Assembly (NCBI GenBank): GCA_045222555.1
Contig: JBGUYY010000072.1
Coordinates: 67,347-131,346, forward strand
Source of the DNA: Bacteroidales bacterium
GTDB taxonomy: Bacteria; Bacteroidota; Bacteroidia; Bacteroidales; WCHB1-69
Length of the DNA: 64,000 nt
Reading direction: 5' to 3'
Numbering within the stretch: the first letter of the stretch is position 1; the number at the start of each line of letters is the position of its first letter. A program made the position numbers and the translations under genes. Positions 11,321-52,651 of the stretch are shown piece by piece. Under the pieces are notes generated by a model, which was given only the letters and a program-made list of their open reading frames with translations, was not told the origin of the DNA and did no database searches.

Positions 11321-11376
11321 TGTAGAGACGGTGCGCATGTTGGAATTGTAGAGACGTTGCGCGCAACGTCTCTACA
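11321..11376. repeat. REP1 elements upstream of RAYT-1 (half-site plus full 30-nt palindrome)
   Basis: Half-site tgtagagacggtgcgca at 11321-11337. Full copy TGTAGAGACGTTGCGCGCAACGTCTCTACA at 11347-11376. Confidence 0.85.
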
Positions 11377-11452
11377 GAAACAGGAATTATCCCCCTCCCA
11401 TTGAGGAATGAAATTTATTTAAAAATATTCGTAAAAATTAACAAAATAATTG

Positions 11453-11460
11453 TATCTTTG
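11453..11460 (+). promoter_or_regulatory. Bacteroidota -7 box TATCTTTG upstream of RAYT-1
   Basis: TAnnTTTG match 28 nt before ATG 11488. Confidence 0.5.
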
Positions 11461-11487
11461 CCGCTCTAACTAATAATCTACTGCACT

Positions 11488-12102
11488 ATGTTTGACGAGA
11501 GATTTATGAATAAATATCGCATAGCCTCTGCCAGAGCCCAATGGCACGAATACAATGGCGGAGAGTATTTTGTAACTATTTGCACAAAAGACAGGGTTCG
11601 CTATTTCGGGGAAATTTCTAGTGGTAAAACGCGGGATGGCGCGAATGATATGAAAACAGAACCCAAAATGCGTTTGACTGAAATTGGGGAGTTTACGGAT
11701 TTGCAATTCCGAAATATTACAAAGCATTATCCGTATGCAAAAATTCCATTGTGGGTGGTGATGCCCAATCATATTCATGCTGTTGTGGTAATTGATAATA
11801 TAGATTGTAGAGACGTTGCGCCTGGTAATTGTAGAGACGTTGCGCGCAACGTCTCTACAGACAAAAACAACCATTCTATGCCGGTACATGCGCCCAAACG
11901 CAATACATTATCTGTGGTGATAAGGGGTATAAAATCTGCCGTAACAAAATATGCCAATGAAAATGGTATCCCCTTCGAATGGCAATCCCGATTCCACGAT
12001 AGAATCATACGCAATACAGAAGAAATGAATGAAATCGCAAAGTATATTGAAGAAAATGTAGCGAAGTGGCAGTATGATGAATTCTATGAGAAATCATTGT
12101 AG
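11488..12102 (+). CDS. REP-associated tyrosine transposase (RAYT, IS200/IS605 TnpA-like HUH protein) with REP1 copies embedded in frame
   Basis: 204 aa. AQWHEYNGGEYFVTICTKDR, HUH motif VVMPNHIHAVVVI, C-terminal IPFEWQSRFHDRIIRNTEEMNEIAKYIEENV. Flanked by REP1 palindromes. The internal segment CRDVAPGNCRDVARNVST is translated REP1. Confidence 0.85.
   Translation: MFDERFMNKYRIASARAQWHEYNGGEYFVTICTKDRVRYFGEISSGKTRDGANDMKTEPKMRLTEIGEFTDLQFRNITKHYPYAKIPLWVVMPNHIHAVVVIDNIDCRDVAPGNCRDVARNVSTDKNNHSMPVHAPKRNTLSVVIRGIKSAVTKYANENGIPFEWQSRFHDRIIRNTEEMNEIAKYIEENVAKWQYDEFYEKSL
11806..11859. repeat. REP1 half-site plus full palindrome inside the RAYT-1 coding frame
   Basis: Half-site tgtagagacgttgcgc at 11806-11821. 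Full copy TGTAGAGACGTTGCGCGCAACGTCTCTACA at 11830-11859. Confidence 0.9.
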
Positions 12103-12177
12103 AGACGTTTCGCGTAAAAATTTTGGTGACAATGTTGCGTATGATAATTGTAGAGACGTTGCGCGCAACGTCTCTAC
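12098..12177. repeat. REP1 half-site (contains the RAYT-1 stop codon) plus full palindrome downstream
   Basis: Half-site tgtagagacgtttcgcg at 12098-12114, with TAG stop at 12100-12102. Full copy TGTAGAGACGTTGCGCGCAACGTCTCTAC at 12149-12177. Confidence 0.85.
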
Positions 12178-12201
12178 TTGTTCACCAATAAATAAACAAT
12201 A

Positions 12202-27398: not shown

Positions 27399-29768
<2,370 letters not shown>

Positions 29769-48961: not shown

Positions 48962-50050
48962 CTATTTCCAGTAGCGGGTTTCGAGATAGGTAAGCAGTTC
49001 TTTGTATTTTTCGTTACCTTTCAAGGGGGAGAGCAGGGCTTGGGGGTCGATGATACGGAATTTTGATTTGTCTTTCAAAGTTGGGATATATTTTACCTCA
49101 ATAGCATTTTTCAATTCAGTATGAGCATCTGGAACAACCATTATATGATGGAAATCCACAGCCTTAATTCCATTAATATCTTTTTGCTTTATGATTTGTT
49201 CCATCAGAAGAGTTTGTCGCATTAATTCATAATACGGATCTGCTTTGTACAAATCATCCCATTTTTTCAAATTAGACGTAGAGTCAATCAATTTGGGATA
49301 ACGATCTAAACTCTCTTCGTTGGCTTCTTTCCCATAGTAGGTTTCCGTATATTTCCATTCGATTGGTATTAGTATATTCTTATTATCCATCGTCTGAACA
49401 TACACCAGCGCATCTACAGATGTGCAATTTGCTCCTCGAGTTTCATAATTTTCGTGCAGCAAAGTTTTGTTTTTACAAACAAACTCAAATGAGATAAAAC
49501 CGTCATCTTTGTCAATGGGGGCTTGATATACTTTCTTTATTTTCAAACCTGTTGCATTTTCAATAATGACTTTAACTGCTGCATCGTCTTTTCTTAATGC
49601 AAAAAGATGATTAAGACAATGAATTTGTGAAGAAACAAGGTGTCCAGAAGGCAAATGTTTGGATTTGTTTTCTTTCCACCATACTATTTTCCCTTGTTCA
49701 AAGTACTTCAAACAATCATCCTGAATCTTTCCTAAAAGATTATATTTCCCGTTTTGAAGAACAAAATCACGTTTCTTCCCATCAAAATAGCCTTTGTTTT
49801 GGACAATTTTACTCAAATTCTTGTCATAGTATTGTAGCTGTTTTTTACGTTCCGAATAATAGTAATCTCTTGACATGGCTCTATTTAATTTATGACTACT
49901 ATTTAGATATATTAAATCATCTTTATATCCTTTTTTGAAACAACAAAAAGAGAATTCAATAAATTTGTCTTCTCCATTTTTATCTGCAAAAGCAAAAACA
50001 AATTTAGGACTTTCATTTGTGATTTCTAATGATTTATCAAGAATACCCAA
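48962..50050 (-). CDS. PD-(D/E)xK nuclease-like protein, downstream half of the module (no ATG; TTG start or continuation of the upstream ORF by frameshift)
   Basis: 362 aa. ..SVDALVYVQTMDNKNILIPIEWKYTE.. gives D..E-x-K spacing. AT-rich. First in-frame ATG is not until codon 59. Confidence 0.55.
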   Translation of the reverse strand: MGILDKSLEITNESPKFVFAFADKNGEDKFIEFSFCCFKKGYKDDLIYLNSSHKLNRAMSRDYYYSERKKQLQYYDKNLSKIVQNKGYFDGKKRDFVLQNGKYNLLGKIQDDCLKYFEQGKIVWWKENKSKHLPSGHLVSSQIHCLNHLFALRKDDAAVKVIIENATGLKIKKVYQAPIDKDDGFISFEFVCKNKTLLHENYETRGANCTSVDALVYVQTMDNKNILIPIEWKYTETYYGKEANEESLDRYPKLIDSTSNLKKWDDLYKADPYYELMRQTLLMEQIIKQKDINGIKAVDFHHIMVVPDAHTELKNAIEVKYIPTLKDKSKFRIIDPQALLSPLKGNEKYKELLTYLETRYWK

Positions 50051-50789
50051 GTCTTTTTTTTTGTTTTAGCAATTCCTTCATTTCTTTATAGAAATCACCC
50101 ATATTATCTCTCCCAATCGTACATTCATAACTGTCAATGTGATCCACTATTCCTGATTTCCCTTCAAGAGCGTTCAGTCCTTTTTTCAATTCAATTACTA
50201 TTAATTGACCTTTATGAATGGCGATGATGTCAAAGCGAGGTTTTTTCTTGTCTTTAACAGAACCATTATATTTAAAACTGGAGTCTGTACTTACCGCATA
50301 TTCCAAATCCAAAACCACATAATCGGTTTTTTTTCGATTAGCGAGAGCTATTTGCTGCTGTTCCTGTTTCTCTGCATGAGAAATGCCAAGTTGTTCATTA
50401 AGTGTCTCTTCCCAGTCGCGCATTATTTTTTTTGCTTGATTGAAATAGCATTCTACCTTTGAATGATCTAATGGAGAATTGGGATTCATCATCAAACCTT
50501 TCCTTTGCTCTACAAGTTTATCAATTATATGTTTTGCATCAACATCACCTTCCTTAGCCTTTGCTTGTAGATGTGTTTTACGTTCCTCATTACAATCTTT
50601 GTAGAAATAGAATTCATCAAGGTAGAAACTACGAGGATTGATTTTTAGAATATTTCCTCCCTGGTAATACACATTGATGTAGTTGTCTCTGATTTGCAAA
50701 TCCAGTTCGGAATCCGACAAAATGTACTCCAATAATGGTTTCCACTCTCCTTGGAGTCTTTTCATGAAACTGTCTGACAATTTTCTCAT
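50037..50789 (-). CDS. PD-(D/E)xK nuclease-like protein, upstream half of the module
   Basis: 250 aa. ..DYVVLDLEYAV..KKPRFDIIAIHKGQLIVIELKKG.. is the classic D..E-x-K core (compare YraN EVDLIA..FVEVKTR in this same window). Ends 5 codons after an A9 tract. Confidence 0.6.
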   Translation of the reverse strand: MRKLSDSFMKRLQGEWKPLLEYILSDSELDLQIRDNYINVYYQGGNILKINPRSFYLDEFYFYKDCNEERKTHLQAKAKEGDVDAKHIIDKLVEQRKGLMMNPNSPLDHSKVECYFNQAKKIMRDWEETLNEQLGISHAEKQEQQQIALANRKKTDYVVLDLEYAVSTDSSFKYNGSVKDKKKPRFDIIAIHKGQLIVIELKKGLNALEGKSGIVDHIDSYECTIGRDNMGDFYKEMKELLKQKKRLGYS

Positions 50790-50826
50790 AACTAATTATA
50801 ATTTAATAATTTAACATCTTAATAAT

Positions 50827-51174
50827 TTAATAATCCACACCACCGGCCTGATGCAACCGACAGGGTTCTTCTGTCTCCAACAATCCCTCCTCTTCCAAAA
50901 AAGTGTTGAAATCCGTATCGAAGACGATCTCCTCCGGCAGGGAAGGAATCTTGCTGCTTCCGGCAAAAATCTCCTCATTGGTCAGAAAAGCCTGCAGCCT
51001 TTTCATCAGGTGCGACTTGTTCTCCTCCACAAGCTCTAATACCGCGTCACTCAAAAAGTCGTGAAGCTCGTTTTGCAATTGTATCTTCTGTACCTCGCCG
51101 AATGACACATCGCTGGTTTCCAAATACGTTTCCCACTGCGGCATGTCATAACACAATTCAATCATTCCTTTCAT
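50827..51174 (-). CDS. Small acidic hypothetical protein
   Basis: Start set at MKGMIELCYDMPQWE because a -7 box at 51206-51213 lies inside the longer ORF. Glu/Asp-rich with no signal peptide. Confidence 0.45.
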   Translation of the reverse strand: MKGMIELCYDMPQWETYLETSDVSFGEVQKIQLQNELHDFLSDAVLELVEENKSHLMKRLQAFLTNEEIFAGSSKIPSLPEEIVFDTDFNTFLEEEGLLETEEPCRLHQAGGVDY

Positions 51175-51205
51175 ACTGCTTTTGCTTTTTCTGGATTTTC
51201 GGCTG

Positions 51206-51213
51206 CAAAGATA
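51206..51213 (-). promoter_or_regulatory. -7 box (reverse complement TATCTTTG) for the acidic-protein gene, possibly also the nuclease-like module
   Basis: Plus strand CAAAGATA, 32 nt upstream of ATG 51174. Confidence 0.45.
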
Positions 51214-51264
51214 TAGGGTTACTATGCCATTTTGTGACATAGTGATAAAAATTTAAAAGGGCAT

Positions 51265-51915
51265 TCATTCACAGCCATAAAAACGATCCGTCTCCCATTG
51301 CATCGGATTCCGCTCAATGTATAGGGCAATTTGGTTCATTTCTTCTCTGTTCCTTACAATGCGGTCGTGATACCGCGGTTGCCATGAAAAGGGAATTTGT
51401 CGGGCATTGGCGAATTTGGTAACAGCGGATTTGAACTGTCCGATAATATGCGATAATCGTCCGCAGCGATTTGCCCTGCGTTGCATTTCGGTGTCCTTCC
51501 CATCAGACGTGGAATTGCCGATTGTAGGGCTGTCACAATGTGGCAGCCCTACATTCCCGTTAATTTGTGCGTCTGTAGGGCTGTCATAATATGGCAGCCC
51601 TACAGATGGTGGCAGCCCTACAGATGGTGGCAGCCCTACAGATGATGGCAGCCCTACACCACCATCCAAAAAAATCACCATGTGGATATGGTTGGGCATA
51701 ACGACAAATAGCGGGATCTCCGCGTCGAGGTTTATTTCACTGATTTTCATTATACATTGGCTTGCGTACTTTCCCACATCTGTCAGTTGCATTGTTCCAT
51801 CAACAACTTCACCAAAAAAATGCAGCCGATCTTTCGTGCAAATGGTTACAAAGTATTCTGCGCCATTGTAATCGTGCCATTGGGCGCGGGGGGATTTTCT
51901 GTCGTGTAGTTTCAT
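51265..51915 (-). CDS. REP-associated tyrosine transposase (RAYT-2) with REP2 copies embedded in frame
   Basis: 216 aa. AQWHDYNGAEYFVTICTKDR, HUH VVMPNHIHMVIFL, IPFSWQPRYHDRIVRNREEMNQIALYIERNP. The internal GVGLPSSVGLPPSVGLPPSVGLPYYDSPT..GNVGLPHCDSPT is translated REP2. Confidence 0.85.
   Translation of the reverse strand: MKLHDRKSPRAQWHDYNGAEYFVTICTKDRLHFFGEVVDGTMQLTDVGKYASQCIMKISEINLDAEIPLFVVMPNHIHMVIFLDGGVGLPSSVGLPPSVGLPPSVGLPYYDSPTDAQINGNVGLPHCDSPTIGNSTSDGKDTEMQRRANRCGRLSHIIGQFKSAVTKFANARQIPFSWQPRYHDRIVRNREEMNQIALYIERNPMQWETDRFYGCE
51523..51658. repeat. REP2 array inside the RAYT-2 CDS: two 31-nt palindromes plus three 18-nt tandem half-sites
   Basis: TGTAGGGCTGTCACAATGTGGCAGCCCTACA (51523-51553). 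TGTAGGGCTGTCATAATATGGCAGCCCTACA (51574-51604). GATGGTGGCAGCCCTACA x2 plus GATGATGGCAGCCCTACA (51605-51658). Confidence 0.9.
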
Positions 51916-51960
51916 TATAGTTAGTTTAGCAAAGATTATATTTCATTCATCTACAGGTTT

Positions 51961-52028
51961 TGTAGGGCTGTCACAATGTGGCAGCCCTACAATCATAATA
52001 TGGAAGCCCTACAATATGGCGCCCTACA
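51961..52028. repeat. REP2 cluster upstream of RAYT-2 (one full palindrome plus two degenerate half-sites)
   Basis: TGTAGGGCTGTCACAATGTGGCAGCCCTACA (51961-51991), then ..atatggaagccctaca and atatggcgccctaca. Confidence 0.85.
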
Positions 52029-52033
52029 GGATG

Positions 52034-52651
52034 TCATAATGCGTCAACCCCACGTTGCAGCCTCTCCAAAAATCGGGCTGCGTCGCCACCGTCCATCTGC
52101 ACGTGGTGGAACTGGAACGACACGGGCAGCGTAGCCTTGAACCAGCGCTTGCGGTACTTGCCCCACATCACCATCGGGTTGAGGAACTTGTCGGTGTATT
52201 GGTTTACCACGCAGTCGAGCTCGGTCTGGATCATGGCGGAGGTGCCGACAATCATGTAGCCGTCGAGGAAGCTGCTCTGGCACTCTTCCGCCACCCGGGT
52301 GGTCAGTTCCAGATAGTCGCGGTTGAACTGCTGCAGGTCGGCGGAGAAGGGGATGTCGCACGAGTTGATGCCGCCCTTGCGGTTGCGCACCACCACGTTG
52401 ATGGCCATCTGGTCGTAGCGGAACAGCTTGCCGCCCTCGGGCAGCAGGTAGAGTTCCTCGGTTTCGGTGGCCGCCTTGCCGATGCACCAGCACATCAGTG
52501 TGTTGAACTTGACGTGCTGCTTTTTGCTGACCTTCAGCAAGTGGCTGACATTCATCGTTTTCACCAGTGTCACCATCGGCATCGGCGCATTCAGCCACAT
52601 CTCAAAGGCGAATGCCCGATTGGTCTCTTGCGGGTTGATTTCGTGTTTCAT
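52034..52651 (-). CDS. CatA-like (chloramphenicol acetyltransferase family) O-acetyltransferase
   Basis: 205 aa. ..FQFHHVQMDGGDAARFLERLQ matches the CAT catalytic HHxxxDG motif. Length typical of type A CAT. Confidence 0.7.
   Translation of the reverse strand: MKHEINPQETNRAFAFEMWLNAPMPMVTLVKTMNVSHLLKVSKKQHVKFNTLMCWCIGKAATETEELYLLPEGGKLFRYDQMAINVVVRNRKGGINSCDIPFSADLQQFNRDYLELTTRVAEECQSSFLDGYMIVGTSAMIQTELDCVVNQYTDKFLNPMVMWGKYRKRWFKATLPVSFQFHHVQMDGGDAARFLERLQRGVDAL

Follow-up and report, generated by a model that had tools for sequence, protein, structure and literature searches.

In-frame copies of cognate REP palindromes in the beta3-alphaC loop of two Bacteroidales RAYT transposases, a subfamily-wide trait

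The closest described relatives of the two genes analyzed here are the REP-associated tyrosine transposases (RAYTs; REP, repetitive extragenic palindrome) of subclass 2.4, in which in-frame REPs were reported in the loop between strand beta3 and helix alphaC (Quentin, Siguier, Chandler and Fichant, 2018; BMC Genomics 19:475, PMC6006769). According to that study the REPs of this subclass are double-foot GTAG...CTAC palindromes, the proteins carry NH[IFV]H (HuH), WQ and YIxNNP motifs and a short extra segment of ~8 residues where helix alphaB ends, members are abundant in Cyanobacteria and Bacteroidetes, and the in-gene copies are taken to lie in a peripheral loop that tolerates them (PMC6006769). 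GTAG-tagged palindromes and clusters that are read in frame in coding regions, adding 10-80 residues, are also known (Di Nocera et al., 2013; PMC3733652), and a 2021 paper on TnpA_REP recognition does not treat in-gene REPs (PMC8266576). Here we describe two such genes, RAYT-1 and RAYT-2, together with their REP families REP1 and REP2, in a 64,000-nucleotide stretch of an uncultured Bacteroidales-like genome (contig JBGUYY010000072.1, positions 67,347 to 131,346), which is referred to below as the window. In the scheme of Bertels et al. (2017) subclass 2.4 reportedly corresponds to RAYT group 4. To our knowledge its in-gene REPs, reported in 2018, have never been explained, and we likewise know of no resolution of how REPs spread and what part RAYTs play, nor of any instance in which a RAYT was seen to mobilize a REP in vivo. 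Our analysis indicates that the beta3-alphaC loop of both proteins, which is predicted to be structurally dispensable, is coded largely by the cognate double-foot GTAG REP.

The RAYT-2 gene is an intact 216-amino-acid open reading frame (ORF) on the minus strand (51265-51915) that codes for an HUH/Y1 REP-associated tyrosine transposase of the subclass 2.4 type, and its translation holds exactly the peptide quoted in the first-pass annotation of this DNA, GVGLPSSVGLPPSVGLPPSVGLPYYDSPTDAQINGNVGLPHCDSPT. Specifically, the gene contains a full 31-nucleotide REP2 palindrome A (TGTAGGGCTGTCACAATGTGGCAGCCCTACA, 51523-51553) that codes for VGLPHCDSPT, a spacer (51554-51573) belonging to a composite REP doublet that codes for DAQINGN, a second full 31-nucleotide palindrome B with the loop variant TAATA (51574-51604) that codes for VGLPYYDSPT, and three tandem 18-nucleotide units (51605-51658), with one REP2 half-site arm each, that code for (VGLP[SP]S)x3. 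Read in the direction of the gene, the block is VGLPSS VGLPPS VGLPPS VGLPYYDSPT DAQINGN VGLPHCDSPT. The three half-site arms (51611-51622, 51629-51640 and 51647-51658) follow one another at exactly 18 nucleotides and keep the register set by the 3' arm of palindrome B (51593-51604). A further REP2 cluster (51961-52028) is located between the stop codon of a CAT-family gene (52034) and the start of RAYT-2, where a full palindrome (51961-51991) lies 46 nucleotides ahead of the start codon and is accompanied by two degenerate half-sites (52002-52013 and 52018-52028) with spacings of 15 and 22 nucleotides, which are not multiples of 3. The layout of two full copies and three half-sites in the gene, and of one full copy and two half-sites upstream of it, is that given by the first-pass annotation.

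A count of the 12-nucleotide REP2 arm GGCAGCCCTACA across the 64-kb window, allowing at most one mismatch, returned 10 copies that all fall within 51523-52013, compared to an expectation of 0.23 from dinucleotide shuffles, none of which (0/100) reached 10. An eleventh and weaker half-site, at 52018-52028, was read from the sequence. The full REP2 copies are predicted to fold as single-stranded DNA (ssDNA) hairpins with energies of -12 to -16 kcal/mol (z of -5.7 to -8.3 relative to shuffles), and the messenger RNA of the RAYT-2 loop also has a predicted fold more stable than its shuffles (z of -3.1). The three full copies of the window all point the same way; at one stem position they have T.G on the plus strand (non-coding for RAYT-2) and a C.A mismatch on the strand that codes for RAYT-2. 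With this common orientation, and with the two in-gene palindromes forming a direct rather than an inverted doublet, a REPIN arrangement was rejected. REPINs are said to be two inverted REPs with a short spacer between them (Bertels and Rainey, 2011). An Rfam scan of 50500-52600 gave only sub-threshold matches resembling microRNAs or small RNAs (34 bits against a gathering score of 90), which were treated as artefacts of the palindromes.

RAYT-1 (11489-12102, plus strand, with a start at either 11489 or 11506) is a paralog of RAYT-2 with 47% identity (alignment A3) that has REP1 in the same loop. The REP1 palindrome is TGTAGAGACGTTGCGCGCAACGTCTCTACA, and its arm TGTAGAGACGTTGCG has 9 matches in the window, all within 11321-12178, compared to 0.08 expected. 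Chance was rejected as a source of the REP2 and REP1 arm counts (10 against 0.23 and 9 against 0.08), in agreement with the first-pass view that the pattern calls for a mechanistic or selective cause. Inside RAYT-1 there is a half-site (11806-11820) followed by a full palindrome (11830-11859), which together (11806-11859) are read as CRDVAPGNCRDVARNVST and translate as CRDVAPGN CRDVARNVST. The same layout of a half-site and then a full copy recurs upstream of the gene (11321-11376) and downstream of it, where a spacer separates the two (12098-12178). The embedded palindromes of both genes thus match the REPs that flank them, REP2 for RAYT-2 and REP1 for RAYT-1, as had been annotated. Also as annotated, both inserts lie in frame in the same loop; the REP-coded stretch begins 8-9 residues after the second His of PNHIH in each protein and stops before a conserved helix (LSxxIxGxKSAVTK). 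The RAYT-1 stop codon TAG (12100-12102) is provided by the GTAG foot of the downstream half-site (12098-12112), and in some RAYT-1 homologs, such as P0135, translation continues in frame through a C-terminal REP.

Both genes have the motifs of working-looking transposases. The HUH metal-binding motif PNHIH, an NH[IFV]H form, is present in both proteins and in RAYT-2 is coded at 51682-51696 (minus strand, residues 74-78), on strand beta3 (residues 76-83 of the model), where its counterpart in the alignment to 4er8 is PEHMH. In alignments A3 and A4 H76 does not vary and H78 is at least 90% conserved. A WQ motif downstream of helix alphaC reads FSWQPRYHDRIVRN in RAYT-2 and FEWQSRFHDRIIRN in RAYT-1, with W178 and Q179 invariant. 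The catalytic-tyrosine motif of RAYT-2 is YIERNP (residues 199-204; 51304-51321, minus strand), which a phmmer alignment places against YIYINP of 4er8, and Y199, I200 and N203 are invariant in A3 and A4; the protein also bears the motif SWQPRYHDRIVRN. Relative to the subclass consensus YIxNNP, the YIERNP of RAYT-2 (YIEQNP in close homologs) and the YIEENV of RAYT-1 differ at one to two consensus positions, and the Tyr, Ile and Asn are conserved in both. The variable beta3-alphaC insertion of in-frame REPs, a subclass 2.4 feature, is also present in RAYT-2 (residues 87-139, REP2-coded), and cognate double-foot REPs (5' GT[AG]G, 3' C[TC]AC) flank RAYT-2 upstream and RAYT-1 on both sides. Like the members described for subclass 2.4, RAYT-1 and RAYT-2 combine NHIH and WQ motifs with a variable beta3-alphaC insertion of short DNA repeats in Bacteroidetes, and their tyrosine motifs are close to the YIxxNP form. 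We see no essential difference from that description and assign both to RAYT/TnpA_REP subclass 2.4.

Both proteins also match curated hidden Markov models. The NCBIfam model REP_Tyr_transpos matches RAYT-2 with an E value of 8e-13 (48.5 bits) and RAYT-1 with 3.5e-14 (52.9 bits), below its cut-off of 80 bits, and Pfam Y1_Tnp scores 20.7 and 19.3 bits, respectively, below a cut-off of 23 bits. The scores remain under the cut-offs because the loop insert splits the domain match; furthermore, the equivalog that the NCBIfam model describes belongs to other subclasses, and both proteins fall outside it though they are clearly homologous. The AlphaFold model of RAYT-2, built on an alignment of 82 sequences, has a confident core (118 residues with a predicted local distance difference test score, pLDDT, of at least 90) with the HUH strand at 76-83 and a helix at 142-171. 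Residues 87-139 between them have pLDDT below 50, and the 50-odd REP-coded residues are thus predicted to be disordered. A Foldseek search of the PDB with this model returned 4er8_A, TnpA_REP bound to a REP hairpin, as the top match (E 6.4e-6, probability 1.00), followed by the TnpA proteins of ISDra2, IS200 and IS608. The annotation of both genes as RAYT-type HUH/Y1 transposases is borne out. When the non-loop codons of RAYT-2 are compared with those of its orthologs in metagenome loci L134 and L153, the ratio of nonsynonymous to synonymous substitution rates (dN/dS) is 0.11 and 0.30, which indicates that the core is under purifying selection and that the gene is not decaying. A pseudogene was rejected on these values.

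Comparison with related systems brings out what is particular to this loop. E. coli TnpA_REP (YafM, 4ER8; subclass 2.2) shares the HUH/Y1 fold with RAYT-2, its HUH and tyrosine motifs align (PEHMH with PNHIH and YIYINP with YIERNP by phmmer against PDB sequences), and its cognate hairpins, like REP1 and REP2, carry a 5' GTAG and flank the gene. However, the E. coli protein has a beta3-alphaC loop of ~12 residues, no in-gene REP, bulged single-foot REPs and a C-terminal extension, and in sequence it resembles RAYT-2 only marginally (E 0.058, with 16% identical residues when the structures are aligned). The RAYT-2 insert falls between residues ~68 and ~80 of the 4ER8 chain in the phmmer alignment. 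The IS200/IS605 transposases (IS608 and ISDra2 TnpA) have the same catalytic fold, act by ssDNA hairpin chemistry and come from hairpin-bordered genes. RAYT-1 and RAYT-2 differ from them in lacking tnpB as well as distinct left and right ends and in occurring once each in the window, and their palindromes differ in being dispersed alone, far from transposase genes, and in placing a hairpin inside the coding sequence. Finally, intragenic REPs in unrelated genes (PMC3733652) and Rickettsia palindromic elements likewise are in-frame palindromes in coding regions, but they occupy sporadic host genes, whereas here the host is the REP's own transposase and occupancy in the subfamily is near-universal.

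We explored this occupancy in protein searches that returned 3,530 homologs of RAYT-2, of which 99 were parsed for loop peptides, and 3,018 homologs of RAYT-1, of which 115 were counted. All 20 of the closest RAYT-2 homologs (71-83% BLASTP identity) have loop peptides of the VGLP..DSPT type in varying copy number, and homologs at ~50% identity have VGLPYHDSR, VGLSYYGSR or RLPQCDSPT in the loop, which are coded by the same arms. The loops of RAYT-1 homologs read CRDVARNVST, CRDGVHTVST, CRDAINRVST or VETGRAPSLQ, translations of GTAGAGAC-footed palindromes whose inner stems differ from one another in a complementary manner. Overall, REP2-type peptides were found in 95 of the 99 RAYT-2 homologs and GTAGAGAC-type peptides in 100 of the 115 RAYT-1 homologs, counts that are approximate as they come from regular-expression patterns. 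There is nearly no crossover between the two sets, indicating that REP type tracks protein clade.

A survey at the DNA level covered the best 80 tblastn loci in contigs chosen as one genome per species, from Bacteroidota, Chloroflexota, Patescibacteria, Nostoc, Poribacteria and others. The WQ anchor for the loop end failed in 11 of 83 surveyed genes, which were excluded, leaving 72 parsed genes. A loop hairpin, defined as a stem of at least 8 base pairs in the DNA between HUH and WQ, is present in 65 of the 72 and absent from the other seven, which are intact genes. Among the 65, 42 have a GT[AG]G/C[TC]AC foot and 29 are double-foot, and the double-foot copies are nearly all exactly 28 nucleotides long (GTAG-N20-CTAC). 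The GTAG lies in phase 0 or 1 of the reading frame and never in the phase that would be read as TAG. The first footed hairpin starts 6-52 residues after HUH (median 16), indicating that the insertion point varies within the loop, and the distance from HUH to W ranges from 42 to 128 residues. Nearly all tblastn matches are single intact ORFs. The first-pass annotation had called for such a survey, with the expectation of a common insertion position and a preserved frame. The survey bears out the loop as the site, the restriction to the two stop-free frames and the mostly intact state of the genes, and it does not bear out a fixed position. REP1 and REP2 themselves share a 28/29-nucleotide double-foot architecture, GTAG(A/G)G...C(T/C)CTAC, and are best regarded as diverged members of one architecture rather than the unrelated families that had been proposed. 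Taken across the clade and many phyla, the occupied loop is subfamily-wide and appears to be inherited, a state that would predate this genome. This displaces the earlier reading of convergent self-colonization, given the 95 of 99 and 100 of 115 homologs and the 65 of 72 genes just described.

A few family members depart from the intact pattern. At L040:8448-9411 the gene is frame-broken at the loop REP array, with the WQ and Tyr parts out of frame, a second RAYT copy at L066:13424-14059 is split into two frames at the loop, and P0030 is frame-broken inside the array. By pattern matching, about 28 of the 115 RAYT-1 homologs (P0135, P0157, P0186, P0198 and others) also have REP-coded residues, as a second insert, where the N-terminal beta-hairpin turns (after FGEI...), and in five of the 115 there is such an insert at the C-terminus. 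These inserts indicate that the beta3-alphaC loop is not the sole permissive site. A chimeric RAYT at L097:7542-8208 (plus strand) has N- and C-terminal parts nearly identical to the RAYT-2 clade, and its middle (HUH strand and loop) resembles P0115 and carries another REP family, CRDALHASPL...ARGASLQ, which is of the GTAGGGACGCA type; a REP2 palindrome is located 55 nucleotides upstream. This chimera suggests recombination between RAYT paralogs that would have swapped a REP-bearing module.

Several observations indicate that constraint in the loop probably acts on the DNA and not on the peptide, in that two frames are used, stems covary and stem codons are unchanged. Specifically, one palindrome is read in two frames in different members (CRD... 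and VET..., VGL... and RLP...), giving unrelated peptides. Among 19 distinct loop palindromes 98% of cells are paired, and at 7 of 12 stem pairs both partners have changed in a compensatory way, a level that none of 500 shuffles reached, with the caveat that these hairpins had been chosen as hairpins. Finally, between the window and L134 there are no synonymous changes in 16 stem codons, compared to 24% of synonymous core codons that differ (P ~0.013).

The in-gene arrays also appear to exchange with the intergenic clusters and to turn over. In L134 the upstream and in-gene copies of the 18-nucleotide unit CCTGTAGGGCTGCCATAT do not differ. The window and L134 both have, in the gene, a composite that consists of a half-site, a full copy, a ~21-nucleotide spacer and another full copy, and a similar REP2 composite with the spacer AAGGTGCAAAATAACGGGACC occurs in the upstream intergenic DNA of L153, such a spacer being found in the gene in L134. 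A search for the exact RAYT-2 protein in public assemblies gave no match, and the 99%-identical protein P0004 led to metagenome scaffold L001. Over ~750 nucleotides L001 differs from the window by one substitution and a single clean insertion or deletion of 105 nucleotides; in a pairwise alignment the segment absent from L001 is 51554-51658, bounded by the direct repeat TGTAGGGCTGCCA, with palindrome A retained. Array turnover thus appears to be recent, and the first-pass expectation that the 18-nucleotide array would vary between strains holds for this near-identical pair. Half-site spacings are 18 and 24 nucleotides in genes versus 15, 22 and 26 nucleotides in flanking clusters, a difference in which filtering by reading frame is visible.

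REP1 and REP2 have the form of GTAG-type REPs (a palindrome of 20-40 nucleotides with a conserved GTAG foot) and are genuine dispersed families. A scan of metagenome contigs for full REP2 palindromes gave at least 120 loci holding 128 copies, and the figures in this paragraph are counts among the matches listed. No RAYT gene is present in the loci of 120 of the 128 copies; three lie inside a RAYT gene and five within 500 nucleotides of one. The longest ORF that spans a copy has a median of 92 residues versus 395 at random positions in the same loci, indicating that REP2 copies are mostly extragenic. An asymmetric T.G/C.A stem position is kept in 119 of the 128 copies (93%; L082-L201) and gives strand identity to an otherwise symmetric palindrome. 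For 116 of the 128 full copies there is no extra half-site within 80 nucleotides, so dispersed copies are mostly single and half-site arrays seem almost confined to RAYT loci. REP1-type palindromes were found on five REP2-bearing contigs. On four contigs (L100, L117, L152 and L155) REP1-type and REP2 palindromes lie 136-170 nucleotides apart, an observation that the two families co-reside and co-localize in related genomes.

The account best supported by these results, and one that we hold to be somewhat more probable than its rivals taken together, is local insertion or exchange of REPs into a permissive loop, filtered by reading frame and combined with slippage in the array. REPs would be copied or exchanged locally, because the RAYT acts on hairpins in single-stranded DNA close to the gene that codes for it, through gene conversion between that gene and the REP cluster beside it, or both, and copies would land in the loop-coding DNA. 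Selection would then retain only those inserts that preserve the frame and avoid the TAG frame in the permissive loop. Half-site arrays would grow and shrink by slippage or recombination between 13-nucleotide direct repeats, in the gene by multiples of 3 nucleotides, and hairpins would stay perfect by being refreshed from the REPs of the genome or recognized as those are. We infer three of these steps, namely copying by the RAYT, its preference for nearby sites and slippage as the driver of the array changes. A number of points weigh against this account. Subclass 2.4 RAYTs are not known to mobilize REPs. Within the 64-kb window there is no REP2 copy outside the RAYT-2 locus, and sharing of 11-mers between loop DNA and far flanks is at chance level, giving no sign of dispersed REP2 inside the 64 kb. 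Many surveyed loci have no second 12-nucleotide arm within 400 nucleotides or within 10-20 kb, so refreshing from neighbors is not evident in those loci, and an occupancy of at least 90% with perfect palindromes across phyla appears to exceed what purely neutral tolerated insertion would give. In addition, the survey of the best 80 tblastn matches favors intact genes, and the 105-nucleotide difference from L001 could in part be a collapse of repeats in short-read assembly.

The main rival is a selected role for the in-gene hairpin. Under this alternative, which we regard as possible but rather unlikely, the hairpin is a cis-element, either an autoregulatory operator, a messenger RNA hairpin bound by the RAYT, or a protected REP master copy. 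It would account for a loop occupancy of ~90-96% across Bacteroidota, Chloroflexota, Patescibacteria, Nostoc and others, for the near-constant 28-nucleotide GTAG-N20-CTAC with perfect stems and compensatory changes, for stem codons that are unchanged at synonymous sites, for the many loci with no second arm copy nearby, for half-site arrays that are nearly restricted to RAYT loci (absent around 116 of the 128 full copies among the matches listed) and for the stable fold of the loop messenger RNA (z of -3.1). However, seven of 72 intact genes have no loop hairpin, genes differ in where the hairpin sits in the loop (6-52 residues after HUH), in how many copies there are and in their orientation (with both VGLP..DS and VGLS..GS forms), and the same REPs are read in frame in unrelated genes. 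High occupancy could also arise by a ratchet, in which clean removal of an in-frame insert is difficult and new copies keep being supplied locally. In a more specific and similarly tentative form, the hairpin in the coding sequence would either serve as a self-recognized ssDNA or messenger RNA site that lets the transposase sense or restrict the gene it comes from, or be a REP master copy kept under protection, and the half-site arrays of RAYT loci would be footprints of cleavage and rejoining in cis.

The remaining explanations are far less probable. Two independent and recent colonizations in this genome, with unrelated REP families converging on one loop, would explain how two paralogs within one 64-kb window come to have different palindromes in the same loop, and array turnover does show that insertion or expansion events recur. 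We nevertheless give this reading very little weight, as the loop of almost every clade member, down to ~50% identity, contains the REP type of that clade and loop REPs occur in other phyla, REP1 and REP2 are alike in foot, length and architecture, and the trait has already been described as subclass-wide (PMC6006769). Selection at the protein level for REP-coded peptide repeats such as VGLPxS and DSPT, for example as a linker or interaction motif, is consistent with a frame that is always preserved and with peptides that are rich in P, S, T and G and linker-like. It is improbable to about the same degree, given that one DNA element yields unrelated peptides in two frames with the palindrome conserved, that loop pLDDT is below 50 and that copy number differs between near-identical strains. 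Least probable of all is that the locus is a decaying pseudogene or that the array is an assembly artefact. Repeat arrays are indeed prone to misassembly, the Pfam and NCBIfam scores are under curated cut-offs and a few members (L040, the second L066 copy and P0030) are frame-broken, but the ORF is intact with all catalytic motifs, the core is confidently modeled with dN/dS of 0.11-0.30, like arrays occur in dozens of independent assemblies and the low scores are explained by the insert that splits the domain.

The phenomenon itself is already in the literature, and RAYT-1 and RAYT-2 are new members from an uncultured Bacteroidales-like genome. To the 2018 description the comparisons made here add the occupancy figures, the 28-nucleotide constancy, the covariation, the use of two reading frames and the half-site arrays of RAYT loci, and likewise the exchange of composites between intergenic and in-gene positions, the strain-level insertion or deletion and the extra insertion sites of the RAYT-1 clade (N-terminal hairpin turn and C-terminus). 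In-gene REPs occur very widely among gut and rumen Bacteroidales, and they appear to turn over from strain to strain and to be exchanged with the cluster beside the gene. The small genes that carry them are for this reason a convenient natural system in which to ask if RAYTs work in cis and if the hairpin is regulatory. If the hairpin were indeed selected and the arrays were cleavage footprints, the arrays would give a natural record of RAYT activity, of which we know no direct observation. What remains of interest in the locus is how common the trait is in gut and rumen Bacteroidales, the evidence of ongoing exchange between intergenic and in-gene clusters and a possible function of the in-gene hairpin. 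In regards to annotation, subclass 2.4 proteins escape Pfam and NCBIfam cut-offs, and short-read assemblies may collapse the array.

Palindromes of this kind also appear to be tolerated in frame in genes other than those of RAYTs. At 29430-29457 the window has a REP1-like double-foot palindrome, GTAGAGACGTGCTGCAGCGCGTCTCTAC, its one GTAG-footed palindrome that is not at a RAYT gene. It is read in frame (residues 671-680) in the ORF at 27420-29768 (plus strand), which codes for a 782-residue GH97 glycoside hydrolase; the site lies between the catalytic and C-terminal domains. In rumen-type metagenome contigs REP2 is read in frame as VGLPQCDSPT at L190:8859-11960 (minus), L156:742-2790 (minus), L111:4823-6523 (plus) and L186:2969-4336 (minus). 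The hosts include type IX secretion system (T9SS) C-terminal sorting domains of BspA-LRR and CotH proteins and, in a further case, the linker between the FAD- and NAD-binding domains of a Fer2/FNR-type oxidoreductase.

Finally, the gene upstream of RAYT-2 codes for a CAT-family acetyltransferase (52034-52651, minus strand), with the REP2 cluster directly after its stop codon. Downstream of RAYT-2 (48962-51240, minus strand) are ORFs of 137 and 250 residues with no Pfam match, and beyond them lies a gene for a REase-ARP / PD-(D/E)XK nuclease (E 1.5e-35). The genes downstream of RAYT-2 may constitute a restriction or defence module.

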